A DNA stretch of 41,092 nucleotides, taken from a virus. Taxonomy: Duplodnaviria > Caudoviricetes. The notes beneath the pieces are model-generated. The model was not told where the DNA came from, ran no database searches, and saw only the letters and a list, made by a program, of their open reading frames with translations. Each line of letters begins with the position of its first letter. The stretch's first letter is position 1. Of this stretch, positions 1 through 41,023 are shown in pieces. Position numbers and translations under genes: made by a program. Where the stretch lies: positions 1-41,092 of the IMG/VR virus record IMGVR_UViG_3300032250_000406; one strand, 5' to 3'.

Positions 1-123
1 AAAGTTAAAGTAAACACAATCGAAACATTTAATGAACTGGAGAACCTATTATGAAAATTGAAACTATTACTGTTATGGAACGTAAAAATCTTGGCAATTA
101 TGAGCATATTGAAATCTCAGCTT
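1..123. repeat. Terminal direct repeat copy 1 (identical to 40970-41092); circular assembly overlap
   Basis: AAAGTTAAAGTAAACAC...GAAATCTCAGCTT is present at both ends and splits the 40151..41023 / 51..581 gene junction. Confidence 0.97.
35..44 (+). promoter_or_regulatory. AACTGGAGA extended RBS motif (candidate sRNA target) before ORF 51..581
   Basis: GAACTGGAGAACC; GGAG is 8 nt before ATG 51. Confidence 0.7.
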
Positions 124-6159: not shown

Positions 6160-6378
6160 TTATTCTAATATAATTTTATCGCCAGATTCTAGCAATAGGT
6201 AGCTACCATCTTCCATTAACAAAAAATTACCGGCTGGCCCTGATGGCCCATAGTCAATAATATATGTAGCATTGTTTTTTGTCTTCTTTACTATGTTAAT
6301 AGTATTCCCTGCAGTAATCAAAGAGCTGATTACTCCGCATACTTTTTCAGGATCTCCCACAATAGTAAGAATACTCAT
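6160..6378 (-). CDS. Small virion/tail-associated protein
   Basis: C-terminal FLLMEDGSYLLLESGDKIILE fibre-anchor-like motif; N-terminal unit paralogous to 6375..6653. Confidence 0.75.
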   Translation of the reverse strand: MSILTIVGDPEKVCGVISSLITAGNTINIVKKTKNNATYIIDYGPSGPAGNFLLMEDGSYLLLESGDKIILE

Positions 6379-6653
6379 GAGTAAGCCACCACATAATGAG
6401 AGGCAGAGAACGTAGGAATTATTAGATCTATGGTAGCTCCTCCTGATACTAGAGCAGTTAGGTCGGCAGCTAGTTTATCGGGATCTCCTGCAATAACTAC
6501 AAAAGTCTGAGAAGCTACTGTGGTATCTTCAATAACAAGAAATTTCCCTGCCGAGGTTGTCTTTTCTACAATGCTAACTCCAGAAGATAAGGCAGCTAAT
6601 GCTGTAGCTAAAGTATTAGGATCTGCTTGTATTACAGTGCAAGTTTGAGCCAT
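6375..6653 (-). CDS. Small virion protein with internal duplication
   Basis: Two ~45-aa units (VIQADPNTL / VIAGDPDKL). Confidence 0.75.
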   Translation of the reverse strand: MAQTCTVIQADPNTLATALAALSSGVSIVEKTTSAGKFLVIEDTTVASQTFVVIAGDPDKLAADLTALVSGGATIDLIIPTFSASHYVVAYS

Positions 6654-6790
6654 TATTTTTTCCTTTTCTTAGATCTTCCTGCAACGGATAATGCAATGGC
6701 AATTGCTTGCTTTTGCTTTTTTCCTTCACTCATAAGTGTAGATATATTTTGGCTAACTGTCTTGTCAGATTTACCTTTTTTGAGTGGCAT
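6653..6790 (-). CDS. Small basic protein [17 protein letters not shown]...[18 protein letters not shown] (45 aa); not in ORF track
   Basis: Read manually; TAATG-coupled on both sides; resembles the widespread phage MPLKKG...QAIAIA small-protein type. Confidence 0.85.
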
Positions 6791-7401
6791 TATTTCTTCC
6801 CCTTAGCTTGCATTTTTCTAATATACTCTTGATACCTTGGATCTGGAATAGATCTTTCGTCGGATACTCCAAGTTCTTCAACACCACCCGGAATAGCTAA
6901 GTCTGTAGCAGCTCCTGCTAAGTCTGAGTATCCTGCAGCACCCAATCCAATAGCTATAGGAGCCAAGCCCGGAACCACTTTCATAGTCTTTTTTTGTAAA
7001 TAACTAAAAGCATCTGTAGCGTTTTTTGCCCTAGCCCCAGAAATATTAGGAATTTTTTCAAACCCTAATTGCTGAATTATTTTATCTACTGCGTTTATTT
7101 TTCCTTTGTGGTGTCTAGGCAGATCTGGAACATCTAATTTTTTTTGAAGTTCTCTTAATCTAACTACTTCTTCGTATGCTTTTTTTGTTTTTAAATCTTC
7201 AGCTTCCATAGCCTTCATAGCTATATCAATATCAGGATTATCTACTTTATTTATTCTAGCCAACATATCATCTACTACAGCTCTTTTATACTCTTGAGAA
7301 GGAAGAAGTTCTTTTGGAAGAGTCCTTCTTCCTTTAAGATATTCTGAAGAAGGTTGACTAGCTTCTGGATATGGCGATTTTTTCTTTTTAAAATCTTCCA
7401 T
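6790..7401 (-). CDS. Hypothetical, probable internal virion protein
   Basis: 203 aa with a Gly/Ala hydrophobic C-terminal segment; TAATG-coupled in the ejection cluster. Confidence 0.7.
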
Positions 7402-9377
7402 TATAGCCCCTCTGGCACTTCGCCGGATTTGTTAATCTTGTTGATCATTCTAGCTCTTTCGATAGAGTTTAAATCATCTCTTCTAGATACTTCATCAGCG
7501 GCTTTGGCTCTATCGTTAGGATTTATAAATTTCCCGTCGAATACATTATACTTAGATCTTTGGAATAGTGTGGGAAATTCATTAATGATTAAAGGGATTG
7601 CATTTTCCAATGCTTCAGGGTCTTCGTTCAATGCATGAGAAAAGGTATCTACCATTTCATCAGGAACTCCATTCTGAACTAACTTAGCTAAGATGATATC
7701 TTTGTTTTCTAATATAGATTTAGTATCTCTAGGTATTCTATATCCTACAACATCTCTAGGAGAGAACCCAATACTCTGAGGCATTCTTCCTTCAGTTTGC
7801 TGAGGAACTCCTTTGTCTTTTATCAGAGCTTCTACTGGAGTTCTTTTTAATACTCCAGAACCAAACTGACCTGCTTTTGTATCTAGGAATTTAGAAACGT
7901 CAGATCTAGCGATGTCTGCAAACGTAGGGCTTAATAGGCTTTCTTTTAGCCACTGACCCCATCCTCTTATGTCCATCATTCCAGATCCAGTATCTACATA
8001 ACTGCTATCAATCTTTCTATCGATAACTTTTTTGACTCTGATTAAGTCATGCATCATATCGTTGTTCTTTTTATATTCAGAACCACCGACATTTTTATTA
8101 TCTAGGATTTCGTCAAAAGCCCTACGAATTTTCATAGCACCTTGTTTATCAATACCTAAGTCAATAGCTCTCTTATCAAAAGCAGGACTTTTTAAATAAT
8201 TATCTAGTCTTTTCTTTGCCATTTCTACTTCTGCTGCTGGGAGGTTCATACCATCTCCAGATCCGTAGAATTTGACATCTTTAAAAATAACTTTTTTAAG
8301 GTCTTGGGAAAGTTCGTATTTTGCCTCAGCATTATGTCCAGAAGGATCAAAAGTAAAATCTTGGATGGCTCCTTCTACTTTACCTTTTACGTCCATCAAG
8401 TTAACTTTTTTGCTTTTTAGCAGTTCATTATTTCTTGATTTAAGAGAACTTATTGCGTTTGAAGCCGTATTGGCTAAATCGTCCAATGATTGAGGTTTTA
8501 GAAAACCTTCGAGGCTGGTCTTAGTTCTTGCAAATTTCTTAGTAGCAGGATTAAGAAGTTTCTCGCCTTGTTTGAAAAATCCTACTTTATCCAAATTATT
8601 GATCGAACGTATAATAGATGCATCAGTACCTATTTCTTCAGGCTGGTCTTCCGAAAGTTCTTTAAATAGTCTCCACTCATCTGTATCGCCGTACTTCCCA
8701 AATTTCTCTATAGTTTCTGGAGCATTCTTTGGTTTAATGTCAGCAGCCTTTACTCCAATGCTTTTAGACAAGATTTTATTTGGGTCGTCAGCAAACATCT
8801 TTCTTGCTACTGTCCCTAGCCCTTCCATTCCAGCTTGGAAACCTCCAGACAATGCTGCGTATGATGGAGCTTCTTCCATAGTAGGAGCTTCGCCTACTCC
8901 TTGAGCTATTGCCGTGCCTATTTCTTTAGCAGTTCTAGCTCCTTTAGTGGCTCCCATAAAAGGAATTATTGCTGAAGTAACTGTAGAACCAGTGGCTTCT
9001 GCTAATGGTGCCATCAAAGGGTATTCTTTTTCAATATCTGCAAGCTCTTGTCTGTATATATCTCTTTGAGTTACGTATTCTGGAGAGCTTAAAGACCCGG
9101 TCTTTATTCCTGCAACAGCTTCTTCTCCAAAACCTAAAGCAGCTCCTTGACCAAACTTTTTAGCTAACTTGGCAGCTTCTTGTTGAAGTTCTAAATTAGG
9201 AAGAGTTTCTGGTTGGTCGAATGGCTCAGGAGGAGTATACTCATCTCCCATATCAGAAACAAATTCTTCCTCAGAAGATACAGGCATGGCATCGTCTGCG
9301 ACAAATCCCATGTCCTCATCTGCTACGAATCCAAAATCTTCTTCTTCTTGAGCTGGGGTTCTTTTTGCCTTTGCCAT
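7401..9377 (-). CDS. Probable DNA ejection/internal virion protein
   Basis: 658 aa helical; acidic N-terminus, QGAALGFGEE and Gly/Ala membrane-seeking segments; podovirus synteny. Confidence 0.7.
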   Translation of the reverse strand: MAKAKRTPAQEEEDFGFVADEDMGFVADDAMPVSSEEEFVSDMGDEYTPPEPFDQPETLPNLELQQEAAKLAKKFGQGAALGFGEEAVAGIKTGSLSSPEYVTQRDIYRQELADIEKEYPLMAPLAEATGSTVTSAIIPFMGATKGARTAKEIGTAIAQGVGEAPTMEEAPSYAALSGGFQAGMEGLGTVARKMFADDPNKILSKSIGVKAADIKPKNAPETIEKFGKYGDTDEWRLFKELSEDQPEEIGTDASIIRSINNLDKVGFFKQGEKLLNPATKKFARTKTSLEGFLKPQSLDDLANTASNAISSLKSRNNELLKSKKVNLMDVKGKVEGAIQDFTFDPSGHNAEAKYELSQDLKKVIFKDVKFYGSGDGMNLPAAEVEMAKKRLDNYLKSPAFDKRAIDLGIDKQGAMKIRRAFDEILDNKNVGGSEYKKNNDMMHDLIRVKKVIDRKIDSSYVDTGSGMMDIRGWGQWLKESLLSPTFADIARSDVSKFLDTKAGQFGSGVLKRTPVEALIKDKGVPQQTEGRMPQSIGFSPRDVVGYRIPRDTKSILENKDIILAKLVQNGVPDEMVDTFSHALNEDPEALENAIPLIINEFPTLFQRSKYNVFDGKFINPNDRAKAADEVSRRDDLNSIERARMINKINKSGEVPEGL

Positions 9378-10957
9378 TATTCTATTACCTTGAAGTTTTT
9401 ATTTGGGTTCTTTGTTTTCTTATATTCTTCCATTGCCTTCTGTAGTTTATCCTTAGGCATATAGCCTGTCTTCCCATTTGGAGCCTGTACTCTGACCATA
9501 TTTTGCCTATTTGGCATAGCGTCTACAGCTTGAGGGAATACTTCAGACTTTAAAGTACCTGCTGGTACTTTATATTTTTTAGAAAATTGTTTATCAGACT
9601 CTTCCAAAGATCTTGCCATATCTTTTTGAGCTTTTTTATAGTAAAGATTTGCAATCTGATTTAAGGCAGCAATATCTGCAGCAAGCATTGGCTCTCCGTC
9701 AATTAATCTTCCTTTAATTCTTTGAGCCGTAGCAACTACAGATGGATCACCTTGGATCAATGCCAAGTCTTTATCGGAAGTAGCACCTACGTTACCTGCC
9801 ATTTTTAAAATAGTAAGTCTTGCAGAGTTAATTGCTGCCGGATTACCCATTGCCAATAAACCACGAACTTTTTCAGCACCTGCTAAAGTAGATCTAGCTT
9901 CTTGGAATTGCTTAGATGAAGTTATTGTTTTACTTTGTGCTTCTAAAGCTCTTCTTTGAACAGGACTTAAGTCAAATTCTTGCTTAAATACTCTTTGTCC
10001 TCCGGCTCTTTCATAAAGACCAGACTCTGTATTTAATCTAGGAGTGTAATCAATTCCTGCTTTTTTGTACCCAAATGCCATAGCAGCTCTTCTGCTAGCT
10101 TCCTCTGGAGTTACTGCAAATCCTACCTCAACGCCTTTATTTTTTATAGGAGTCCCATCTAAATGGTACATTTCACCAGTTACTGTGTCATAGTTTGCGT
10201 ACACAGATCTCTTAAGCTCAGGATCCCAAATAGGTCTGCTCTGAAATCTTTTATTTAAATTTCCGACTTTATTTACTTCTTTAGCTTTGGCTTTTTCAAT
10301 TTCTAAGAGCTTGTCTTCAAGCCCTCTGTTTCTTTTTTCTCTGTCTGATACGTTACCTAATAAATAGTCCGCAGTTATACCAGAGGCTGCGCCAGTGTTT
10401 CCGCCCATTAATGCCCCAGCTAACAAAGGAGCCAATGCAGGAAGAATATCGCCCCATCCTGCTTTTTCTTTCATGCCATCGATCATTTCTGAATACGATG
10501 GTTTTCTTTCAGGAGATGGTTGTGTGCTTTCTTTTAGGTAAAGATTATCGCTTCCAGAAGAAGTCTCTTGTTGTTCAGGAGCTTTTGCTGGTTGTGCTGA
10601 ACCTTGAGGCATAGATGACTGAGGGGTCGGGGCTAACTTAAATTGTTTTTTAATTTGTTCTAATTTTTCTGGAGCTACTTTTTTTTGAGCAGCCACATCT
10701 TGAGGAAGCATTTCCACGTAATTAGATCTTTCTGGAGCTGAAGGAGCCATAAGTTTCATAGCTTCTTTTCCAAGAATATTAGAGTCCATTACAGGAGCAG
10801 TAGAAGTCTTAGGATTAGTAGGTGCTACTTTCTTTTTCTCGATAGGAGTAGGAACTACTTTGCCTTCTTTCATGTAGGTAATTGCCGAAGGGTTCTGAGT
10901 GACGTAGTTATCCCTAGGGGCTATCCCCAACATCTTCTCTAATTCTTCCTTAAGCAT
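9377..10957 (-). CDS. Probable DNA ejection/internal virion protein
   Basis: 526 aa; hydrophobic GDILPALAPLLAGALMGG segment, helical core, C-terminal VRVQAPNGKTG motif. Confidence 0.7.
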   Translation of the reverse strand: MLKEELEKMLGIAPRDNYVTQNPSAITYMKEGKVVPTPIEKKKVAPTNPKTSTAPVMDSNILGKEAMKLMAPSAPERSNYVEMLPQDVAAQKKVAPEKLEQIKKQFKLAPTPQSSMPQGSAQPAKAPEQQETSSGSDNLYLKESTQPSPERKPSYSEMIDGMKEKAGWGDILPALAPLLAGALMGGNTGAASGITADYLLGNVSDREKRNRGLEDKLLEIEKAKAKEVNKVGNLNKRFQSRPIWDPELKRSVYANYDTVTGEMYHLDGTPIKNKGVEVGFAVTPEEASRRAAMAFGYKKAGIDYTPRLNTESGLYERAGGQRVFKQEFDLSPVQRRALEAQSKTITSSKQFQEARSTLAGAEKVRGLLAMGNPAAINSARLTILKMAGNVGATSDKDLALIQGDPSVVATAQRIKGRLIDGEPMLAADIAALNQIANLYYKKAQKDMARSLEESDKQFSKKYKVPAGTLKSEVFPQAVDAMPNRQNMVRVQAPNGKTGYMPKDKLQKAMEEYKKTKNPNKNFKVIE

Positions 10958-10958
10958 A

Positions 10959-11444
10959 CTATTTTGCCTTTTTAGATTTCTTTAATAATTCTTCATCTTT
11001 TTTAGAAGCTGGCTCGCCTTCTTTTAACATGATAATTTCGCCTTTCTTCTTGCCAGTTTCTTTTTTAGCCGCAGCAGAAATCAAAGCTTCCATTCTCAAT
11101 GCAGCTTCTTTTTTAGGCTTTTTCTTTTCAGGCATTTCTTTTTCTTCATCCTCTATTTCAACTTCCCATTTTACTGGTTTTGTTGAAACAGATCCAGCTC
11201 CAACTAAAGAAGGCTTGTATGTCTCTGAAGGAAGTTTTGCAGAAAGCTGAGGATTTGGCTTATATTTAGTAGTAGTAGCTGATGTGATCCCTGAAAAATC
11301 TATTGGAGCAGTCTTTGCCCCTTCTAAAGTAGATTTATAAAACTCAGAAGGTAATTTCGCAGAAAGGGATGGATTTGCCTCATATTTAGCAGTTTCCATT
11401 TCTTTTTTCTTCTTTTTCAACGCTTTTGAATTAAACTTTTCCAT
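10959..11444 (-). CDS. Lys/Glu-rich protein with duplicated 24-aa motif
   Basis: KYEANPSLSAKLPSEFYKSTLEGA / KYKPNPQLSAKLPSETYKPSLVGA; AAGGAG RBS. Confidence 0.8.
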   Translation of the reverse strand: MEKFNSKALKKKKKEMETAKYEANPSLSAKLPSEFYKSTLEGAKTAPIDFSGITSATTTKYKPNPQLSAKLPSETYKPSLVGAGSVSTKPVKWEVEIEDEEKEMPEKKKPKKEAALRMEALISAAAKKETGKKKGEIIMLKEGEPASKKDEELLKKSKKAK

Positions 11445-11463
11445 ATGATCTCCTTAACCCTTT

Positions 11464-12522
11464 TTAGTATATTACTTTAGCTGTTAAAATTTTAGGAATA
11501 TTTTTAAGATTTGCACCTAGCCATTTCATGCAGTTATTTACAAAGAAGAGTCTAGGAAAGTGCAACATTCCTGACAATCTATAGGTAGCTAACTTTTGAT
11601 TAAAATTGTCTACTCCATAATGAGAGCAAAATGTTCCAGTTCTATGAATGTAAAGATTCTGAGCTTGGACAAATTTTCCTTCTTTTAAAAGGTCAATAAT
11701 GTCGTCTACGAAAAGCTTTTTGATTGTAGACCAATCAAAACCTTCCATCTCAGCAGCTTCTACTGCTTTTTTACCATGCTTAAAATACCATACTAAAAAG
11801 TCAGATCTTTGGATCATAGACTTAAGCATAAATTGAGTCATGATAAATGTCTCTTTGGCATTCATAAGCTTTTTACTGCGTAGCATAGTACAAATGAATG
11901 AAGTACCACCACTGTCTGGAGCTGAAGGAAGTTGTTTTGCGGCTCCCTTTTCTCCGTACATTAATCCAGTAGTTCCGCTTAGAATATTTCCTAATAATGA
12001 TCTGTAATCATTAATTGATTGTCTTTGCTGTCCATATAATGATGCAGCAATTTGTTGATCTTGTTGTTTTCCAACAGAATCAATTGCTCCCATCATAGCA
12101 GTCCCTCTAGCCCCAGTTCCTGCAAGACCTCTTCTTGCTTGAGCTTGAGCTGCTTGTTTCTGCCCCATAATAGCGGCAGATACGGGATCTCCTCCGCCTT
12201 GAGCTACTCTATCTTGTAGAGATTTTTTAACCCCTTGAATGTCTTGTCCAGTTTGACCTAATCCTTGTCCGTACCCAAGCAATGCTGTATTTAGTCCAGC
12301 CATTTGCCCTTGTTGCTCTTTCGTAGAACCAGAAAGGATGCTTCCGCTAGATTTACCTGCTACTAAGTTTTCAGCTTGTCTATTTCTATATGTTTGATTT
12401 CTTTGATCCCACCACTGGGCTTTTTTCTTTTTTCCAATATAGCCATCAAACCCACTTTGCCAATCATTAAAAGCTTTCTGATCTGCTGCTTTTTCTTCAG
12501 GTGTTTGTCCTTGTGAACTCAT
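11464..12522 (-). CDS. Probable ejection (pilot) protein with C-terminal GGTSFICT domain
   Basis: Gln/Gly/Ala-rich N-terminal half, then a globular domain starting GGTSFICT. Confidence 0.7.
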   Translation of the reverse strand: MSSQGQTPEEKAADQKAFNDWQSGFDGYIGKKKKAQWWDQRNQTYRNRQAENLVAGKSSGSILSGSTKEQQGQMAGLNTALLGYGQGLGQTGQDIQGVKKSLQDRVAQGGGDPVSAAIMGQKQAAQAQARRGLAGTGARGTAMMGAIDSVGKQQDQQIAASLYGQQRQSINDYRSLLGNILSGTTGLMYGEKGAAKQLPSAPDSGGTSFICTMLRSKKLMNAKETFIMTQFMLKSMIQRSDFLVWYFKHGKKAVEAAEMEGFDWSTIKKLFVDDIIDLLKEGKFVQAQNLYIHRTGTFCSHYGVDNFNQKLATYRLSGMLHFPRLFFVNNCMKWLGANLKNIPKILTAKVIY

Positions 12523-21948: not shown

Positions 21949-21981
21949 GGTCTCCTCCTCCTTAAGGGGTATCTAAGTATC

Positions 21982-22004
21982 AAAAAGAGGGGCCGAAGCC
22001 CCTC
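21982..22004 (-). terminator. Rho-independent terminator
   Basis: Minus strand GAGGGGC-TTCG-GCCCCTC-TTTTT. Confidence 0.9.
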
Positions 22005-22013
22005 AGAATTTAA

Positions 22014-22527: not shown

Positions 22528-22556
22528 AGTATTGCGTTGATTTGGATAGATGTAAA
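22528..22556 (-). promoter_or_regulatory. Putative sigma70-type promoter TTTACA-N17-AATACT
   Basis: -35 at 22556-22551, -10 at 22533-22528; predicted +1 near G22521, the first base of a hairpin. Confidence 0.4.
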
Positions 22557-22557
22557 T

Positions 22558-22583
22558 AAAAAAGGGCACCCCGAAAGGTGCCC
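22558..22583 (-). terminator. Rho-independent terminator after major capsid gene
   Basis: Minus strand GGGCACCT-TTCG-GGGTGCCC-TTTTTT. Confidence 0.9.
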
Positions 22584-22608
22584 CGAATTGTACTTTATAA
22601 AGTACAGA

Positions 22609-29583: not shown

Positions 29584-30089
29584 AACAGTTCTTCTTCCTC
29601 TTTTATGTCCAACTCCGTATTAACATCGTTTATACGGACTTCAGTATACTCGGCATCTATAGCAAATGGGTCAGATGCTAAAGCCTTAACGGCTTCATCA
29701 GGCTTAAGAAGCTTAAACTGCTTAAGATCTATGCTGATATCTACCTTCTTATTGTTGTTTCCGTACTTATCTGGGTTGTCTGCCTTAGCTAAGAACTGCA
29801 GTTTATCAAACTTTAAGCGTTCAGAACCTACTTCGTCCTTGGCATAATCGAAATCCACAGTCTCAGCGATCTTAGATACCCAAAAGTCAGCTCTAATCTT
29901 ACGAGCTTCCTCTACATCCTTGATAAAATCGCGGTCTTCTACCATTAACTTTATGTAAAGTGGCTTGGGGAAACTAAGAGTATTTAAAGCTACGTTCTCT
30001 GAGTACCCGTTTGTGATTAACTCAATGTATTTATTCTTGAGTTCTTTGAGGTCTACCGAGGACGCAGGTACAATCTGCGAGTTGCTCAT
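29580..30089 (-). CDS. terS: Terminase small subunit
   Basis: N-terminal HTH-like region, EEARKIRAD...RLKFDKLQFLAKADNPDKYG as in Sf6-type TerS; first gene of the late arm. Confidence 0.75.
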   Translation of the reverse strand: MSNSQIVPASSVDLKELKNKYIELITNGYSENVALNTLSFPKPLYIKLMVEDRDFIKDVEEARKIRADFWVSKIAETVDFDYAKDEVGSERLKFDKLQFLAKADNPDKYGNNNKKVDISIDLKQFKLLKPDEAVKALASDPFAIDAEYTEVRINDVNTELDIKEEEELL

Positions 30090-30095
30090 TGGGTA

Positions 30096-30125
30096 ATAAT
30101 AGCATCCTAGGAAATGGTGTGACAA
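30096..30125 (-). promoter_or_regulatory. Leftward sigma70-type promoter TTGTCA-N18-(TGc)TATTAT; predicted leaderless terS mRNA
   Basis: -35 at 30125-30120, extended -10 TG at 30104-30103, -10 at 30101-30096; A of ATG (30089) is the 7th base after the -10. Confidence 0.65.
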
Positions 30126-30250
30126 GAATATAATAGTTGATTAATTATGTAGGGTAATTTTAGAAAAAATTGGAAAAATTTTTATATGGGTCTATATAAA
30201 CACAAACACATTGGGACGCGTTGAGGGGGGTAAAAATTTTTTAGCTTACC

Positions 30251-30335
30251 GCAGCAACTATACGCAGCAACTATATGCAGCAGACCATAGCAGCAGACTT
30301 ATGCATTAGACATACGCAGCAACCGTACGCATTAT
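30251..30335. repeat. 13-bp tandem array (GCAGCAACTATAC-like), 6 copies plus a partial, in the divergent control region
   Basis: Units start at 30251, 30264, 30277, 30290, 30303, 30316 and 30329. Confidence 0.92.
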
Positions 30336-30613
30336 GCCTTTCTGATTAATGTCTCGCGGTTATTCTGATAGTACTTTTGTGATGTGATATCTAGTGGAGA
30401 GTCGGGACAATAAAAGAGAACTAACGTCATGCGGATATTTCACATGAGATAGTGCTAGTACTTTAGGTTTCCCACCCCACGGAAACGCGTGTAAAAAAAT
30501 CGTATGTCAAATAATTGTGAAACAATAACTTTATCTATTCCGCGCAGCTTTTAAAATATTTAATAACTATCTTCCCAATTAATCCCCAATCTAGCACTAT
30601 TTTCTCTTTTGTG

Positions 30614-30642
30614 TTGACCTTTCATACTTTTCACATTAGATT
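30614..30642 (+). promoter_or_regulatory. Rightward early sigma70-type promoter TTGACC-N17-TAGATT
   Basis: -35 at 30614-30619, -10 at 30637-30642, T-rich upstream element; precedes the first rightward gene. Confidence 0.65.
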
Positions 30643-30671
30643 AATACTATCTTTTCAATAACTGAAAAGAA

Positions 30672-30683
30672 AAACTGGAGAAA
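30672..30683 (+). promoter_or_regulatory. AACTGGAGA extended RBS motif before first early gene
   Basis: AAAACTGGAGAAA; GGAG is 8 nt before ATG 30689. Confidence 0.7.
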
Positions 30684-30688
30684 TTTAA

Positions 30689-31042
30689 ATGAATCAAGCA
30701 ACTATCTCAACGGCTATCGTTCAACCCACTAAACCAGACTCTATTAATGACACTCAAGTCTTATTTAAGCTATCAATCCAAGTCATCGGCATTAAAAAAA
30801 GATGTCGCAAGTCCGAACGTCACTTTTTCCAACTAGGTCATATACCTTACAACGAAGGCAACTATGACCACGAAGCTATGAAGCAAAAAGCCCGTGACTT
30901 TCTTGATACTAACATGAAAGAGATCAATTCAATCGTTCGCCTATGCCTTGACCACGTAGTCATTAAGAACGAAGGCAACTTTACAGTGACTCAATGGGAA
31001 CCATTCTCAAAGCTCAATAAGTCTTTTGACTTCTCACTTTAA
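30689..31042 (+). CDS. Hypothetical early protein
   Basis: 117 aa with RBS and upstream promoter. Confidence 0.85.
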   Translation: MNQATISTAIVQPTKPDSINDTQVLFKLSIQVIGIKKRCRKSERHFFQLGHIPYNEGNYDHEAMKQKARDFLDTNMKEINSIVRLCLDHVVIKNEGNFTVTQWEPFSKLNKSFDFSL

Positions 31043-31063
31043 TCAATTAAGGAAAACCACACT

Positions 31064-31783
31064 ATGAAAACTAAATTTAAAATGCTTCTCACTACTCAAA
31101 ACGCTAAAACATCTAAAGGAGAAGATTTAGGATATCTTACGGGCATTCTCTATTTAATCCCGTCCGATAAGTCTAACCTAGTAAACGTCTGCAAGTTTGC
31201 CTCTAAAGGATGCAAGCAATCTTGTCTAGAATCTGCCGGACGTGGAAAGTTTAACAGCGTTAAAAAAGCAAGACTTGCTAAAACAGAACTATTTGCTACT
31301 AACCTTGAATATTTTATGCAATCGTTAGCTTATTCCATCCACAAAGTCATCAGACAAGCCAAGCGTAAAAACCTCACTCCCTGTATCCGTCTCAATGGTA
31401 CTAGTGACATCTCTTATGAAACTATCAGAAATTCCAAGGGTCAAAACATTTTCGAGATGTTTCCAGATATTCAATTTTATGACTACACTCCTGATTTTAC
31501 CCGTACCAATGCTTTTCTTGGCAAGTGGAAAAATTATCACTTAACCTTCTCACGTAAAGAGTCACGTGCTAACCACGTACAGGCTGAAAGATTGCTCTCT
31601 ATGGGCGTAAATGTTGCCGCTGTCTATCTTGACTTAGACAAAGTACTCAAGACCAATGCCAAGGCTGTTAATGGTGACTTTCATGATCTTCGTTTCCTTA
31701 ATCCTAACAATGGTTCAATCATTGCTTTGAAGGCTAAGGGTGACGCTAAAAAAGACCTATCGGGATTCGTTATTAGAAATTAA
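31064..31783 (+). CDS. GP88-family (radical-SAM-like) phage protein
   Basis: NAKTSKG, CKFASKGCKQSC (Cx6Cx3C), IRLNGTSD, QFYDYT, NYHLTFS, GD.HDLRF motifs. Confidence 0.8.
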   Translation: MKTKFKMLLTTQNAKTSKGEDLGYLTGILYLIPSDKSNLVNVCKFASKGCKQSCLESAGRGKFNSVKKARLAKTELFATNLEYFMQSLAYSIHKVIRQAKRKNLTPCIRLNGTSDISYETIRNSKGQNIFEMFPDIQFYDYTPDFTRTNAFLGKWKNYHLTFSRKESRANHVQAERLLSMGVNVAAVYLDLDKVLKTNAKAVNGDFHDLRFLNPNNGSIIALKAKGDAKKDLSGFVIRN

Positions 31784-31795
31784 TAGGAGAAAATT

Positions 31796-32002
31796 ATGCT
31801 GTCATATTATTTAGGTAAATTGCACGTTAGCAAGTCAAACTATCAAGCGATTAAGTTTATTATGTCTAAGATGAAAAAAGATAGTAGAAAAAAATTCTAT
31901 GCCTCTCCCATTGAGACTAGAAAAGCATTCTATCGTGAAGTCATAAGAATTCATGAAAACAATTTAAAAACATACGTTAGCGTTATGACAGGAAACTTTT
32001 AG
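31796..32002 (+). CDS. Small basic hypothetical protein
   Basis: 68 aa, TAGGAGAAAA RBS. Confidence 0.8.
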   Translation: MLSYYLGKLHVSKSNYQAIKFIMSKMKKDSRKKFYASPIETRKAFYREVIRIHENNLKTYVSVMTGNF

Positions 32003-32012
32003 GAGAAAACAT

Positions 32013-32186
32013 ATGATTAAAATTAAATCTTTCATGATCAATGGCACTGGATACACAATAACCATCGAAATCAATGGCGATACTATCAAGGCAAATACTT
32101 ACTTCGATTATGACGGCTATGACAAAATAGACATCGATGGAAAGACTTATGAACTAGTTGGCCTATCTTACTTAAGAGAGGTATAA
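32013..32186 (+). CDS. Small hypothetical protein (57 aa, MIKIKSFMING...YLREV); not in ORF track
   Basis: Read manually; TAGGAGAAAA RBS; fills the gap. Confidence 0.8.
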   Translation: MIKIKSFMINGTGYTITIEINGDTIKANTYFDYDGYDKIDIDGKTYELVGLSYLREV

Positions 32187-32187
32187 A

Positions 32188-32400
32188 ATGGGATTTATCA
32201 ATAGTGACGGTTCTTTGAATGCCCTCAAAGTAGCGAATCAAATTAAAATCACCGCTAAGGGCATAGATGACTCGATTTATTATTGCTTCGATGAGCTTGA
32301 AAACGAGAAACGATTGATAGCCTTGGAAGCCTATAACAATTTATTAACCTTGGCGAATGCCATTGAAAGGGAAGAAGATGAATTCTTTAATGAAGCTTAA
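32188..32400 (+). CDS. Hypothetical protein
   Basis: 70 aa, GAGG RBS. Confidence 0.75.
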   Translation: MGFINSDGSLNALKVANQIKITAKGIDDSIYYCFDELENEKRLIALEAYNNLLTLANAIEREEDEFFNEA

Positions 32401-32650
32401 AAAGATTGAACTAGTAGAATTATATGAGAATGAACAACAAAGAGCCGATGAACAATGCGACAGAGCAGAACGACTGCAGGATGAACTAGACGAAGTCGAA
32501 ACATATGAGGATGAATTCCACGAGCTGCAGGAAATTAAAGATCTTTTAGATCTTATCAAAATTGCCAAGGAAAGGGACTATCTCGGAGTAGCTACCGCGC
32601 GCGAGGACTTCGACAAAGCATTCGATAAACTAATGGACTATGCAAACTAA
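32378..32650 (+). CDS. Acidic coiled-coil hypothetical protein
   Basis: Highly E/D-rich helical ORF; start uncertain (32357/32378/32390). Confidence 0.75.
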   Translation: MNSLMKLKKIELVELYENEQQRADEQCDRAERLQDELDEVETYEDEFHELQEIKDLLDLIKIAKERDYLGVATAREDFDKAFDKLMDYAN

Positions 32651-32664
32651 TAGGAGAAAATTTT

Positions 32665-33261
32665 ATGATCAAAACATTTACCGACAAAATCACCCAAAAA
32701 GTCATTACCTATAAAGACACGAGTCTTTTCACAATTGAAACGCGATCAAAGTATAACTCGCGCGTAGTGAAAAAAGTTTTCCAGTCCTCTGATATTCAGC
32801 AAGCTTTAGACGAATTTTATGATTTAGTAGTCGCCTCAGGACATTACAAATATTTCTATATGAGACCACTAGACAAGTCCGAGAGTGAAACTCTTATCTT
32901 GCGCATGAAAGGCTATTCCTCTCAAGTAGCAGTAGAAAACATGGTATTAAAAGAAAAGAGACCTAAAGGCAAAATGAGTACTGTAAGCATAGCGAACCTG
33001 ACCAATTGTCCGGCAAGCTTGGCAAATAAACTATCGAGTGAAGATTTTGATCAATACCCTGTGAGTATCTCGCGCTGGACTACTTCGAAGATAGTTTACT
33101 CATTGCTCGCGTACGCGATGTCATTACCTCAGGAAGAAAAATTAAAGCTCTTGCGCGAGGCAGATAAACAGCTATTGATTCACAAAGAATTATCTGGATT
33201 TTCTATAGAAGAAGAAAGTCTGATCAAAGTGGATTTAGTCACGAGGGATGATCTTTTATAA
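32665..33261 (+). CDS. Hypothetical protein
   Basis: 198 aa, TAGGAGAAAA RBS, ends DDLL. Confidence 0.85.
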   Translation: MIKTFTDKITQKVITYKDTSLFTIETRSKYNSRVVKKVFQSSDIQQALDEFYDLVVASGHYKYFYMRPLDKSESETLILRMKGYSSQVAVENMVLKEKRPKGKMSTVSIANLTNCPASLANKLSSEDFDQYPVSISRWTTSKIVYSLLAYAMSLPQEEKLKLLREADKQLLIHKELSGFSIEEESLIKVDLVTRDDLL

Positions 33262-33299
33262 AAAATGCCAAGAGACACACACTATTAGTCCCTTGGCAT
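33260..33299 (-). terminator. Rho-independent terminator on minus strand
   Basis: AUGCCAAGGGAC/GUCUCUUGGCAU 12-bp stem with a G-U pair (A-C mismatch on the plus strand), followed by a U-run. Confidence 0.75.
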
Positions 33300-33338
33300 A
33301 ATTATCCGACAGGGAAACTGGAGATAACCTTGAAGGAT
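33260..33338 (-). ncRNA. Candidate trans-acting small RNA with anti-RBS seed UCUCCAGUUU
   Basis: Bounded by a minus-strand promoter and terminator; seed (33324-33315) is complementary to five AACTGGAGA RBS sites. Confidence 0.65.
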
Positions 33339-33344
33339 CTTTAC

Positions 33345-33373
33345 AATTTAAATCAAAGCTTTTAACCTGTAAA
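33345..33373 (-). promoter_or_regulatory. Leftward sigma70-type promoter TTTACA-N17-TAAATT
   Basis: -35 at 33373-33368, -10 at 33350-33345. Confidence 0.6.
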
Positions 33374-33378
33374 TCTTT

Positions 33379-33388
33379 AACTGGAGAA
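33379..33388 (+). promoter_or_regulatory. AACTGGAGA extended RBS motif before the NTPase gene
   Basis: TAACTGGAGAAAA; GGAG is 6 nt before ATG 33393. Confidence 0.7.
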
Positions 33389-33392
33389 AATA

Positions 33393-34919
33393 ATGGAATA
33401 TGACGAATTAAAACGAAAGCTTTTCCCCGATTTGTTTCAGATACTCTTTGATGAGTTTCACGTGCAGATATCTCCTGCAGGTGCGATCAAGATAAACTCT
33501 GAAAAGATTGATCATAAAAACTTTACAAATTGGTATTTAGCACTTTGCAAGGAAGATAAACTTCGTAAGTTTGCCGAGCTGTTGACTGTGTCGCCCACGG
33601 CAAATGTCTTTTTTGAAGACTTTAGACGCGGATTGAAGTTTCATCAGTCAGAAAAGAAAAAATCTAACATGCGCGGACTTGATGTCGTGAAGGACTTTAT
33701 TTACTCTGATCTCATCCCTTTTATTTCTATCGAAAACGCGAAGCTTATGATGTTCTATAATAAGAATACTGGCGAGATCCTGCCTCTGGATTATCAGACT
33801 TATGAACGCACTGAAGACAAAGATCACAGGACTCCGCTAGTACGCGCGATCATCAAGTTTAATCCTTACAGGCCTGAGACAATTTATGTATCGGAGAGTG
33901 ATTATGGAAAAGAATGTACTCATATCAACACATTTAAGAGACCTGAATGGCAATTACCGCGAGAATTATTATTGGAAGAAAGAAAAGAGTACTGTAAACT
34001 TCCCACTGTTATTGACTCTTTTATGCGTCATTTATTTCCTGACGACAATTGCCGCGACTATGTTTATGATTGGCTTCATTACGCACTAGCAAAGAGATGT
34101 GAAACTTATCTCGTGCTGAATGGCGCGAAGGGTATTGGTAAAGGTATCTTCACTGACCATTTATGCCGCTCCCTTCTTGGCAAAGAAAACTTTGTTATTG
34201 CTCCCCCAGGTGCGCTTGAATCAAACTTCAATGCTATTTTAAAAGATAAGCGCATGATCGCATTCGATGAGTTTCGTATCGATGACGAGGACAAAATCAA
34301 TAAGCTAAAACGATACATAAACAGAGACCAAACGATCGAACATAAGGGCGTGGACATTGGTAAGACAATTGAGACATTTAACAGTTTTATTATATCTTCT
34401 AATTCTCTCTCTGATATGCGCATTGCTTGGGACGATAGACGTTTCTCGGTTGTAGACATCTGCCAAACAAAGCTAAACGAAGTATGGTCAAAAGAGCAGA
34501 TTGAAAACTTAATCGAAGAGCTTGAACCTACGTCTAAGACTATGCAGGAATTTGGCTATTGGCTTCTCTATCGTTCAGCTCGTGAGAATGAGTTCGCAGT
34601 ATTTAAGGGCAAGCATTTCTATAAACTTTGCTATAGCTCACTCCCAGAGTGGTCTCGTGTTGTTATTGACGAGATCCTTGGGGCGAAGTCTGACAGCGTA
34701 GACGATGCTCAATTGAAACTAGCATACAAAGAGTCTAATCCTATGGGTAAGTTTCCTAATCCACATAAGGTTGAAGACTTTTTGAAGAACTACAAGCACG
34801 AAGGAAAGTATTATCTCGGAGAATTTAAGCGTGACAATCGGTCATGGTATATCCAAGTAGACAGGCACTTTTATAAATCCGCAGATAATACAGGTATCGA
34901 GTGGGAGGATTTATTTTAA
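33393..34919 (+). CDS. Replicative helicase-like P-loop NTPase (SF3/DUF5906, primase-associated type)
   Basis: Walker A GAKGIGKG, Walker B IAFDE, IISSN, arginine finger DDRRF; FNPY and HINTF motifs upstream. Confidence 0.85.
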   Translation: MEYDELKRKLFPDLFQILFDEFHVQISPAGAIKINSEKIDHKNFTNWYLALCKEDKLRKFAELLTVSPTANVFFEDFRRGLKFHQSEKKKSNMRGLDVVKDFIYSDLIPFISIENAKLMMFYNKNTGEILPLDYQTYERTEDKDHRTPLVRAIIKFNPYRPETIYVSESDYGKECTHINTFKRPEWQLPRELLLEERKEYCKLPTVIDSFMRHLFPDDNCRDYVYDWLHYALAKRCETYLVLNGAKGIGKGIFTDHLCRSLLGKENFVIAPPGALESNFNAILKDKRMIAFDEFRIDDEDKINKLKRYINRDQTIEHKGVDIGKTIETFNSFIISSNSLSDMRIAWDDRRFSVVDICQTKLNEVWSKEQIENLIEELEPTSKTMQEFGYWLLYRSARENEFAVFKGKHFYKLCYSSLPEWSRVVIDEILGAKSDSVDDAQLKLAYKESNPMGKFPNPHKVEDFLKNYKHEGKYYLGEFKRDNRSWYIQVDRHFYKSADNTGIEWEDLF

Positions 34920-35278: not shown

Positions 35279-35287
35279 AACTGGAGA
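35278..35287 (+). promoter_or_regulatory. AACTGGAGA extended RBS motif before the lipoprotein gene
   Basis: AAAACTGGAGAG; GGAG is 6 nt before ATG 35293. Confidence 0.7.
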
Positions 35288-35292
35288 GAAAA

Positions 35293-35478
35293 ATGAAATC
35301 AGCAATCTTACTCGTAGTAATGGTAATCGTATTTTCGTCATGCGGAAGAAACTCTGATACTTGCAGAAATCGTGAGACAATGAGATTAGAATGCAGAGCT
35401 GTGAACCAGCCTACGTATGGCTATTCTTATTCTCAGCGTATGTGCGACGAATCTTATTCAGCAGATCGTTGTTATTAA
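35293..35478 (+). CDS. Small lipoprotein (possible superinfection exclusion)
   Basis: MKSAILLVVMVIVFSSC lipobox; four further Cys. Confidence 0.8.
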   Translation: MKSAILLVVMVIVFSSCGRNSDTCRNRETMRLECRAVNQPTYGYSYSQRMCDESYSADRCY

Positions 35479-37281: not shown

Positions 37282-37787
37282 TTTTGATAATTAAGTTCGA
37301 AGATCTTCCACCCATGCCGAGAAATAGATCTCATATGCTCACAGTATCTAAAGGCAGACCGATGAATATCAAGACTCCATTGTGTCGTGAGTTCGAAAAG
37401 GATGTGAGTTCTAGGATGAATGAGTTCAAAGCTCAAGCTCTTAAGCTTAAGGAATCTTTTGACCCTAAGAAGAATTATATTTCTGCCGAGTATTATGTCT
37501 TTACACCAAAGGATCAATTGTTTACTTTGGAGTCAAAGATATCTTCCAAGGCAGTCGATCTTGATGCACACAAAACACTACAAGATACTATCTTTAAGTA
37601 TATTGGTTTGGACGATAAGTTAGTTAGAGAAGTTCGATATTTCAGTCCCGTCTCACACAACGGGAAATGGAATTTCGTGATTATTTATAAACTGGAGAAC
37701 ATATGCAATCTAATAAATACGTCTACCTCGATTCAGAGTTTAACGCCACTAATGAACGACGACTCAATGTCATCTGTTTTGCTTTAG
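37278..37787 (+). CDS. rusA: RusA-like Holliday junction resolvase
   Basis: P..P.N N-terminus, DLDAHK..QD.I...GLDDKLV catalytic pattern. Confidence 0.75.
   Translation: MILIIKFEDLPPMPRNRSHMLTVSKGRPMNIKTPLCREFEKDVSSRMNEFKAQALKLKESFDPKKNYISAEYYVFTPKDQLFTLESKISSKAVDLDAHKTLQDTIFKYIGLDDKLVREVRYFSPVSHNGKWNFVIIYKLENICNLINTSTSIQSLTPLMNDDSMSSVLL
37689..37699 (+). promoter_or_regulatory. AACTGGAGA extended RBS motif before DNA polymerase
   Basis: TAAACTGGAGAAC inside the rusA coding sequence; GGAG is 5 nt before ATG 37703. Confidence 0.7.
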
Positions 37788-39700
37788 TAACAAATGTAGA
37801 AAAACAGGTATTTTGGCTTAAAGATGAATCTGATTTAGAATTGTTTAAAAGCGTAATTACCGATTATTTGATACATAACTACACTTTTGTATCATTTAAT
37901 GTGGAATCAGAAGCTTCGGCTCTGTTGTCTCTTGGCATTGACCCTCTCAAAGCTAAGTGGATCGATCTTTATCTTGAGTACGTTATGCTCTCGAACCATA
38001 ACAATGATGTGTCTAAGGGCAATCAGTATGTACGTGGATCGGTAAAGCGTATTAATAGCTTCTCTGGCGATAAAGGGCCCAAGAATTTATCCGCAGCTCT
38101 CTACAAGCTTTGCAACATCAAGATCGACTCTGACCATAAGAACAAGATGAGAGATCTCATCATCTCAAATCCTCCGAGCTTCTCTGACGAAGAAAAGACA
38201 GCTATCATGGACTACTGCTTAAGCGATACAGTACACCTTCCTAGTTTACTTTCGGCAGTTAAGCAGAAATACAAGCAAACTCTCCCAAGCAATCATCTGA
38301 AAACATTAGGTAGTGAGGTGCATTGGAGAGCTGAGTACGCTATTCGTACCGCTATGATGGTTCGTCACGGATACCCTATAAATACGCAGTGGACTAAGAA
38401 TTTAACGGACAACATCCCTGTAGTTATGAGGGAATTAATCGAGGATATCAATGCACAATTCCCTGAGATCAATCCATTCAAGTTCAACAAATCAACAGCC
38501 AAGTATTCACTCGATACTAAAGCGGTCAGGTCATGGATCGAGACATCTGGAAACAAGGGATGGGAAAAGACTGAAACAGGACTCCTCTCCCTTGCCCTCG
38601 ATTCATTCAAAAAGTTCTATAACTATAGTCATGACTATCCTACTGGTAATTTTGGCGCACAAATGGTTCGATACTTCAACATGGCACAACAGCTCAAAGG
38701 GTTTACGGATCCTTCTGGTTCTAAGTCTAATACTTTTTGGGATTATGTTGGATCTGATGGAATGGTACGTCCTTACATGAATATCTATGGGGCACAAAGC
38801 TCCAGGTCTCAGCCAAGCTCAACGTCCTTCTTGTTTCTTAAGACTGGATGGATGCGGTCGTTATGTATAGCACCCAAGGGATACGCAGTGGGTGCAATCG
38901 ATTACAGCTCTCAGGAGTTCTTGCTTGGTGGACTAGAGGCAGATGACCAGAAGATGATCGATGCCTATGCTTCAGGGGATGTGTATCTTGCCTATGGTAA
39001 AGAGATTGGCGTTATACCTAAGGAAGGTACAAAAGCTTCTCATGGCAAGCAAAGAGATGCGCAGAAGCCAGTTATCCTTGGTTGGCAATATTGGTCTACA
39101 GGATTTGGTCTATCGATCACATTGAATGAGCAGCTAGGTAGACTAGAGTATACTCCAGACTCGGCTCAATTGTTATTGGATAAGCTCGACTCTGTTTATA
39201 GTAAGTTTGCTGAGTTCAGAAATCGTACAATCGAAGAATACAAAGTGAGGAAGTATGTTAGACTACGTGATGGTTTCTATATGCATGGGAACAATCCTAA
39301 TCCTCGATCTGTTGGTAATATGCCCGTCCAAGGTATGGGTGCGGCAATAATGCGAAAAGCAGTCCAACTTGCTCAAGACGCAGGATTGAATGTTATCTTT
39401 ACTCTGCATGATGCTCTATACATTATGTTTGATTCTAATGACTTAGGTACTATGGATACTCTGAGAAGATGCATGAAGGAAGCCTTTGTGTTTTACTATG
39501 AAGGAGAGCTTAAGGAAAAAGCTGCCATGATTAGAATGGATGGAAAAGCATGGAGTTTAGACTTCGAAGATGGCGAAATTTCTACGAAAGACAATTTTAA
39601 AATAGAAGTGCAGAAAATTTTCGTTGATAAACGATCTAAGAAACAATACGATAGTTTCAGCAAGTATTTCACAACCGAATTAAATCTAAATTTGCTATGA
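37703..39700 (+). CDS. polA: DNA polymerase family A with 3'-5' exonuclease domain
   Basis: ExoI LDSEF, ExoIII YCLSD; motif A IDYSSQE, motif B RDAQKPVILGWQY, NMPVQG, motif C LHDA. Confidence 0.95.
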   Translation: MQSNKYVYLDSEFNATNERRLNVICFALVTNVEKQVFWLKDESDLELFKSVITDYLIHNYTFVSFNVESEASALLSLGIDPLKAKWIDLYLEYVMLSNHNNDVSKGNQYVRGSVKRINSFSGDKGPKNLSAALYKLCNIKIDSDHKNKMRDLIISNPPSFSDEEKTAIMDYCLSDTVHLPSLLSAVKQKYKQTLPSNHLKTLGSEVHWRAEYAIRTAMMVRHGYPINTQWTKNLTDNIPVVMRELIEDINAQFPEINPFKFNKSTAKYSLDTKAVRSWIETSGNKGWEKTETGLLSLALDSFKKFYNYSHDYPTGNFGAQMVRYFNMAQQLKGFTDPSGSKSNTFWDYVGSDGMVRPYMNIYGAQSSRSQPSSTSFLFLKTGWMRSLCIAPKGYAVGAIDYSSQEFLLGGLEADDQKMIDAYASGDVYLAYGKEIGVIPKEGTKASHGKQRDAQKPVILGWQYWSTGFGLSITLNEQLGRLEYTPDSAQLLLDKLDSVYSKFAEFRNRTIEEYKVRKYVRLRDGFYMHGNNPNPRSVGNMPVQGMGAAIMRKAVQLAQDAGLNVIFTLHDALYIMFDSNDLGTMDTLRRCMKEAFVFYYEGELKEKAAMIRMDGKAWSLDFEDGEISTKDNFKIEVQKIFVDKRSKKQYDSFSKYFTTELNLNLL

Positions 39701-40150: not shown

Positions 40151-41023
40151 ATGACTACACCAAATTCTAATAATTCTAGTCAAGGTACGGGAGTAAAACT
40201 CTCGTACTCTTCCATGAAAACTCTACAATCATGTGAGCAAAAGTATTCTCACTATAAGATTTCTAATACGCCAAAAGATCCAGACTATGAAGAGTCGGAT
40301 GCACTTGGTCTAGGTAAAGCATTCCACTCTGTTCTTGAGCGTACTTTACATCAGGACTACAATGACATCTTGATTATGGAAGCTATGACTGAGCATAATG
40401 TAGATCCTTCTGAGAAAGAACTACTTACAGTTATGCTTAAGAAGTACGTGGAGTACAGAAAGAAGTCGGGCATCAAAATAGTGAAGTGCGAGCTTCCTAT
40501 TGCGACAGCTCACTACACTGGGTTCATTGACTACATCGCTATCCAAGGTAACAAGTGGTACATTGGCGATTTAAAAACAGCAGGAAGACATGATGAAAAT
40601 ATTTTATCTCAATTGCCTCTTGACCCTCAACTTAATCTGTATGCACATTTTGCTGAGGATCTATACATTGCCGTACCTTCCCTTGCAGATAAACAATTTG
40701 CTGGGTGTCTTTATACACAGACTATCAAATCAAAGGCTCAAACTAGCAATGGTCTGGATAAAGGTGTCAAAGTAATCGAGATGGTCGTTCCTGTTGAATC
40801 AATGAATCCGGCTCTTATCTGGTCATTGTTCAATGAGGTACATGATCGTGCATTGGAACTACATAAAGGCGAAGCACCTAAGAAGAATTTATCTTCTTGC
40901 TTCAGCTTCTTTAGTCCATGCCCTTATTTTTCTCAGTGCCATGGGAAAACCTTTACAGAAAACAGCAACAAAGTTAAAGTAAACACAATCGAAACATTTA
41001 ATGAACTGGAGAACCTATTATGA
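40151..41023 (+). CDS. PD-(D/E)XK exonuclease (Cas4/AddB-like, probable 4Fe-4S)
   Basis: LSYSS...C, G.AFH..LE, E, GFIDY, GDLKT, QL.LY, C-terminal C-x6-C-x5-C. Confidence 0.9.
   Translation: MTTPNSNNSSQGTGVKLSYSSMKTLQSCEQKYSHYKISNTPKDPDYEESDALGLGKAFHSVLERTLHQDYNDILIMEAMTEHNVDPSEKELLTVMLKKYVEYRKKSGIKIVKCELPIATAHYTGFIDYIAIQGNKWYIGDLKTAGRHDENILSQLPLDPQLNLYAHFAEDLYIAVPSLADKQFAGCLYTQTIKSKAQTSNGLDKGVKVIEMVVPVESMNPALIWSLFNEVHDRALELHKGEAPKKNLSSCFSFFSPCPYFSQCHGKTFTENSNKVKVNTIETFNELENLL

Follow-up and report, generated by a model that had tools for sequence, protein, structure and literature searches.

A predicted minus-strand small RNA whose hairpin loop matches the ribosome-binding sites of several early genes in a circular phage genome

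The gap before the primase-helicase gene of this phage appears to encode a trans-acting small RNA (sRNA) on the minus strand, which would use a seed held in a hairpin loop to repress the translation of several early genes. We give this reading a probability of about 0.7; the gap element itself is real and conserved, and is very likely a small RNA. The reading draws on features observed directly, namely the anatomy of the element, its conservation, the covariation of its stems, and the complementarity and joint variation of its loop and the ribosome-binding sites (RBSs). The original prediction was of a minus-strand sRNA that pairs with several early RBSs, and conservation, covariation, and target ranking support it to that extent.

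The window (the whole stretch of DNA analyzed, 41,092 nucleotides) is a circular phage genome of ~41 kb with 39% GC and a 123-bp terminal overlap. The late arm is on the minus strand and comprises terminase, portal, SU10-type capsid, and tail genes. Early and replication genes occupy the plus strand, starting at 30689 and running across the end of the numbering to ~2355; they include those for a DUF5906 primase-helicase-like NTPase, a family A polymerase, a PD-(D/E)XK exonuclease, and an SF2 helicase. No integrase, repressor family, or antirepressor was annotated among the 55 proteins of the phage, and no relative of the NTPase was found in the genome_contigs set. Among named records a Silvanigrella aquatica phage comes closest, with 29.6% polymerase identity and a weak portal match, a relationship too remote for host assignment.

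The gap measures 131 bp (33262-33392), as originally described, and its terminator has the expected form: a 12-bp stem (33265-33276 paired with 33288-33299), in which one pair is G-U on the minus strand only, and a U-run (33265-33260). The promoter that had been proposed, with its hexamers at 33373-33368 and 33350-33345, is indeed present on the minus strand, but the match alone is at chance level (40 sites versus 36.0 +/- 5.6 in shuffles), and it gains weight only because it is conserved in relatives. Two features were absent from the earlier account: the seed sits in the loop of a 5' hairpin, and a plus-strand promoter overlaps the minus-strand one. The window RNA folds with a z score of -4.16, and none of 200 shuffles folded equally well; the sole wobble pair of its 5' hairpin falls on the plus strand. 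The predicted RNA overlaps neither the primase-helicase RBS nor the predicted promoter-driven leader of that gene, and would overlap its mRNA only in a read-through transcript. Within 8 nt after the terminator stem, T occupies 86 of 112 positions on the minus strand and 63 of 112 on the plus strand (14 loci). With a T-rich tail on both strands the terminator is therefore probably bidirectional, and would also serve as a weaker plus-strand terminator for the upstream operon.

Table 1. Features of the gap region and predicted target sites, in window positions
Feature	Position	Strand	Basis or remark
Conserved 198-aa gene upstream of the RNA	32665..33261	+	C-terminal domain predicted homodimer
Predicted ~79-nt small RNA: 5' seed hairpin and intrinsic terminator	33260..33338	-	Start placed 7 nt after the -10
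5' hairpin, arms 33338-33328 with 33314-33304	33304..33338	-	Centroid fold; arm pairing; X2/X4 changes
13-nt loop with seed UCUCCAGUU, complement of AACTGGAGA	33315..33327	-	
Intrinsic terminator, 12-bp stem and U-run	33260..33299	-	
Sigma70-like promoter for the RNA, TTTACA-17-TAAATT	33345..33373	-	
Overlapping back-to-back sigma70-like promoter toward primase-helicase, TTTACA-17-TAACCT	33340..33368	+	
Primase-helicase: primase-associated helicase-like NTPase	33393..34919	+	DUF5906; PHROG primase; weak TIGR01613
RBS of ORF 51-581 (unknown function; overlaps SF2 helicase start), predicted target	35..43	+	Rank 1/55
RBS of first early gene (30689-31042), predicted target	30673..30681	+	Rank 2/55
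RBS of family A DNA polymerase (37703-39700), predicted target	37690..37698	+	Rank 3/55
RBS of primase-helicase, predicted target	33379..33387	+	Rank 4/55; co-varies with loop
RBS of 61-aa lipoprotein-like gene (35293-35478), predicted target	35279..35287	+	Rank 5/55

Relatives were gathered through the primase-helicase NTPase, and 22 distinct ones have upstream DNA. As anticipated, the RNA unit is conserved among them: 13 of the 22 share a layout of stop codon, A-run, terminator hairpin, seed hairpin, promoter pair, RBS, and start. Left out of the set were L026 and L029 (duplicates of L008 and L011), L027 (same contig as L009), L001 (a remote match), and six records that lack the 5' end of the NTPase (L007, L016, L017, L024, L025, and L032); L019, with a broken NTPase frame, was left out of the tree. 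L003 stands outside the promoter, folding, arm-swap/duplex, and strand-asymmetry tests, and L030 outside the counts of early and late genes.

Two hairpins form in all 13 folded RNAs (the window and 12 relatives; z -4.2 to -8.6). When arms were swapped between RNAs, the own 5' arm with the own 3' arm was the best pairing in 12 of 13 cases for both hairpins. RNAalifold gave no consensus structure on a 12-sequence MAFFT alignment because the variable stems misalign. Double-sided changes occur at 11 of 19 pairs in six alignable sequences with a hand-set structure; the covariation score of these six is 0.547 versus 0.297 when shuffled, and 0 of 500 shuffles scored as high, a control that is inflated by relatedness. 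A model built from these six relatives, with the window excluded, recovers the window RNA at E 6e-5 and also found a new copy in L003. In the near-identical strains X2 and X4 the changes cluster in the arms of the seed hairpin and spare the loop core, and positions 33315-33324 are unchanged in X2, X4, and X6; a one-sided terminator change in X4 leaves pairing intact on the minus strand only. The minus-strand promoter occurs in 13 of 13 loci, and a plus-strand partner lies 31-35 bp from its -35 in 12 of 13; where the two were compared, the minus-strand promoter was the better consensus (12/12). Strand asymmetry of the folds is weak, with 19 G-U pairs on the minus strand versus 10 on the plus strand (p 0.07) and better minus-strand folding in 9 of 13.

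Searches by DNA pattern added no copies. Exact or degenerate patterns run against the viral contigs matched either no locus or 117 chance-looking ones, on 100 of which the RNA model gave no match below E 0.09. Further sequence look-ups returned nothing similar. A two-hairpin candidate, L158, was rejected because it overlaps a gene end, and a model match in CP017838.1 (E 0.93) because it lies in apparent coding sequence. The RNA-lacking relative L008 has a different strong hairpin directly before the primase-helicase RBS (9542-9659), and in L019 the primase-helicase frame (9986-11536) is broken after ~136 aa, which may be an assembly error.

The seed complement, AACTGGAGA, occurs eight times in the circular genome, versus 0.47-0.75 copies expected under Markov models. 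Five copies are at early-strand RBSs, one is in the gap (33316), and two are intragenic (23224 on the plus strand, 15428 on the minus strand); a match at 41004 is the terminal-repeat copy of site 35. All five RBS copies named at the outset are in place, 4-7 nt before a start codon, and, as had been expected, they take the first five ranks among 55 start regions when accessibility is included. In an unrestricted duplex scan of both strands, four of the five rank 10th, 12th, 13th, and 16th, the primase-helicase site is absent from the best 16 rows, and the higher-ranked sites are intragenic or antisense. Pairing was also said to extend to ACC at ORF 51; this would require a 2-nt bulge and bases of the stem, and the duplex model did not use it. 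Exact sites precede 5 of 24 early-strand genes versus 0 of 29 late-strand genes (p 0.015). The earlier suggestion that the RNA may silence the replication programme is too wide for 5 of 24 genes; those for the SF2 helicase and the exonuclease lack the site. The product of ORF 51-581 gave an unusable single-sequence structure model (pLDDT 40).

Loop and RBS change together across relatives, as the seed-pairing idea had implied. Loop swaps are matched at the primase-helicase RBS in L002, L018, and L030: where the loop changes from ACT to CTT (L002) or ATT (L018), the RBS changes alongside. The plus-sense loop image and the NTPase RBS both read ACTGGAG in the window group and ACTTGGAG in L002; in L018 the loop image is AATTGGAG and the RBS is AATTGGGG; in L030 both are GGACTAGA, a complete change to GGACTAG. 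A loop pairs with its own primase-helicase RBS at -12.5 kcal/mol on average, versus -10.3 for non-cognate combinations (permutation p 1e-4). In only 8 of 13 phages, however, is the cognate loop the best-ranked one (it is second in the window, 9th in L015, 11th in L004), and the L004 loop pairs weakly with its own site (-8.8). Distant early genes follow the loop as well, with CTT sites at the lipoprotein and a 166-aa gene in L002, and ATT sites in L018. In L003 an inserted gene (9399-10004, plus strand), which encodes 201 aa of unknown function, separates the RNA (9276-9341, minus strand) and promoter pair from the primase-helicase, whose start overlaps it; the RBS that matches the loop belongs to this inserted gene. 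The distant, long-branch relative L030 has the identical architecture (1211-1355) with a wholly different seed and a seed match at only one of six visible early genes; its RNA may have a separate origin.

In the 13 records of RNA-bearing phages, seed-type RBSs precede 53 of 199 early genes, as against 4 of 152 late ones. In nine relatives that lack the RNA the figure is 10 of 162 early genes; the motif, too, is mostly absent there, contrary to the pattern named at the outset as speaking against the idea. One definition was used throughout these counts, which rest on automatic gene calls and are not corrected for the tree. Most RNA-lacking relatives are distant, and the relatives as a set are not independent; three that are nested inside the RNA-bearing group have the site at 2 of 32 early genes. 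Target bases opposite an RNA G (n=63) are C in 34, T in 16, and other in 13, and those opposite an RNA A (n=17) are T in 10, C in 1, and other in 6 (wobble test p 0.0005; the A class comes from two phages only). Such variation fits G-U wobble with a predicted minus-strand RNA.

The RNA could be real and yet control the adjacent primase-helicase only, the other early genes sharing a favored strong RBS. Consistent with this are the lone match in L030 (1/6), which is at the neighboring gene, the L003 match, held by the neighboring inserted gene, and the unselective genome-wide duplex ranking. However, distant genes switch motif with the loop, by CTT in L002 and ATT in L018, and the motif is unused by highly expressed late genes (4/152) and rare where the RNA is lacking (10/162); we judge control of the neighbor alone unlikely. 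It is quite improbable that ACUGGAG is instead a protein-recognition site, for a RegA-like repressor or a RegB-like nuclease, with the hairpin a plus-strand decoy or read-through leader. In the text available from PMC3014915, T4 RegB and RegA do act on early RBSs, and here the hairpin folds on either strand and the terminator has a T-rich plus-strand tail (63/112); but the order promoter, hairpin, terminator holds on the minus strand only, the plus strand placing the terminator before the hairpin and the promoter after it. Target variation, moreover, obeys the G-U wobble of a minus-strand partner, and base pairing accounts more readily than a protein for the full change of motif in L030.

That the RNA acts mainly on host mRNAs, or that it activates or protects phage mRNAs, seems very improbable. 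Pairing of an sRNA over a Shine-Dalgarno normally represses, and the pairing predicted here covers the Shine-Dalgarno itself. A CUCC loop is able to pair with any GGAG site, and the phage sRNAs PreS and VpdS target host mRNAs according to the available part of PMC12197685, but the present loop co-varies with the phage's own sites. Hardly tenable, finally, is the view that the motif copy at 33316 is no more than an RBS next to an ordinary terminator, serving either the TTG micro-ORF (33330-33365), raised at the outset as a refuting alternative, or a gene since lost. The TTG stands 5 nt past the motif, a spacing as in real genes, and 7 of 14 loci have a start codon of some kind after the copy. 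These starts vary in position and spacing and open products of 5-14 aa that look unrelated by eye, the window TTG is not conserved (it is lost in X2 and X4), and a micro-ORF leaves the covarying stem around the motif unexplained; as the reason for the motif it is largely refuted.

Under the favored reading, a trans-acting repressor of several early genes, host RNA polymerase would transcribe the gap leftward to produce the ~79-nt RNA, and its open loop would pair over 9-10 bp with the Shine-Dalgarno of tagged genes, blocking initiation. Five early genes are the predicted partners, including the primase-helicase and the DNA polymerase. Translational coupling would damp any gene that has its start overlapping a target gene, as the SF2 helicase gene does behind ORF 51. 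Controlled genes would be marked by 3-4 extra bases 5' of GGAG (ACT, ATT, or CTT), with which the standard 16S tail does not pair. An RNA duplex of 9-10 bp usually needs a chaperone or high RNA levels. The predicted RNA promoter is host-type, lies back to back with the primase-helicase promoter and overlaps it, and comes closer to consensus, so that the RNA would accumulate as genome copies rise; polymerase bound there may also compete with transcription of the primase-helicase. The outcome would be a dosage-sensing negative feedback on replication genes.

The most likely role, and one that we favor somewhat, is a brake on replication at the end of the early phase; next comes plasmid-like maintenance or immunity, which we regard as doubtful. 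More tentatively, the phage may possess an RNA-only regulon, in which a private address in chosen early RBSs is read by one hairpin-loop RNA that would be fired from the promoter overlapping that of the primase-helicase. On this view each lineage would change its loop and addresses in step, and the RNA could be both a master replication switch and a lineage-specific immunity key against related phages. If true, one small RNA that co-evolves with the RBSs of several replication genes would give phages a new means of timing or limiting their replication. With its natural variants (ACT, CTT, ATT, and GGACTAG) as ready-made orthogonal loop-RBS pairs, the idea is testable in Escherichia coli reporters without the phage or its host.

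Two known systems offer partial parallels. The c4 antisense RNA of P1/P7 is described, in the available text of PMC12197685 and PMC8198154, as a structured RNA whose loop-exposed segments pair with the ribosome-binding region of a phage mRNA and block translation. The window RNA likewise has a loop-exposed segment with predicted complementarity to such a region. However, c4 targets one operon, icd-ant (antirepressor), and is encoded within it, whereas the window RNA is on the opposite strand, is predicted to have a promoter and a terminator to itself, and finds its matches at five early and replication genes dispersed over the genome. The Rfam C4 model had no match at E <= 1 in window positions 30000-34000, the window RNA had no Rfam match, and six related loci had no relevant one. 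In pMV158, RNAII is a small opposite-strand RNA located before repB that has an intrinsic terminator and inhibits rep translation, and the gene upstream of it encodes the repressor CopG (PMC4485353, in the portion available). The window RNA gene is also opposite-strand, in the gap before a replication gene, and has an intrinsic terminator, with an upstream gene that is a candidate repressor only. In the same portion, RNAII is fully complementary to the region that it overlaps and acts by its 5' tail, with the loop secondary; the window RNA, in contrast, leaves ~40 nt between its end and the target RBS, and its loop holds a separate RBS complement that also fits distant genes, unlike the cis-encoded RNAII. 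The window RNA thus resembles c4 in action and RNAII in placement, and is a member of neither class.

Traits of trans-encoded seed-pairing sRNAs are present at the level of sequence: a promoter, a terminator, a short conserved unpaired seed, and several targets. In the available text of PMC12197685, the phage-encoded RNAs VpdS, PreS, 24B_1, and DicF act in trans by short imperfect pairing, on host mRNAs, by Hfq competition, or on a single phage gene, and none is described there as matching an RBS tag common to several replication genes of its own phage. Nor did the listings of a literature search covering few subscription papers show a phage sRNA of that kind; a further 38 phage sRNAs, uncharacterized, are tabulated in Supplementary Table S1 of PMC12197685. 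The phage antisense RNAs described in the sources available have a single phage transcript or host genes as their target, and the agents known to shut off early genes as a group are proteins: the T4 RegB endonuclease and RegA repressor inactivate many early mRNAs at GGAG RBSs at the end of the early phase (PMC3014915). The agent predicted here is an RNA rather than a protein, and its specificity would come from bases 5' of GGAG.

Protein control may also be present. The 198-aa gene is conserved in RNA-bearing relatives, and in the model of its product (pLDDT 75) an alpha/beta N-domain is followed by a helical C-domain. A homodimer is predicted for residues 98-180, with a score of 0.87 versus 0.00 for the best control; 20 of 30 solved pairs attain this mark, as does 1 of 23 single chains, and the runs agree in at least 95% of contacts with pLDDT of at least 87. 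We take this domain to be ribbon-helix-helix (RHH)-like, by eye and from the pattern of that family. No family or fold was matched, Atlas, PDB-sequence, and Foldseek searches returned no usable match, the best VIA match (Z 7.0) covers the N-terminal domain only, and comparison of the profile with three small RHH-like proteins was negative. The 198-aa protein is a candidate repressor of the promoter pair. The statement that the genome has no visible protein repressor is unsafe because this gene may encode an RHH dimer. In three RNA-lacking relatives a small RHH-like ORF abuts the primase-helicase (L021:3990-4199, L023:218-472, and L028:2251-2493), one with a sub-threshold RHH Pfam match (E 0.0026). 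This hints that RNA and protein controls are interchangeable and that a protein may replace the RNA in these phages.

The 61-aa lipoprotein-like gene is conserved beside the primase-helicase, usually with a seed-type RBS; a cognate variant site precedes it in L002, L018, L019, L013, L014, and L016 and not in L012. A part in superinfection exclusion is conceivable. L006 has four neighboring early genes (6331-7698) with TGGAGA or CGGAGA-type RBSs, and no matching RNA was found in it (best model match E 0.45). In the window, the non-coding stretch between the terminase and early arms (30240-30335) contains several imperfect GCAGCAAC/GCAGCAGAC repeats and is possibly an origin or packaging region. 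Two GC-rich hairpins with A-runs in late-arm gaps (21975-22005 and 22555-22590) are likely to terminate minus-strand transcription on either side of the gene that comes after the one for the major capsid protein.
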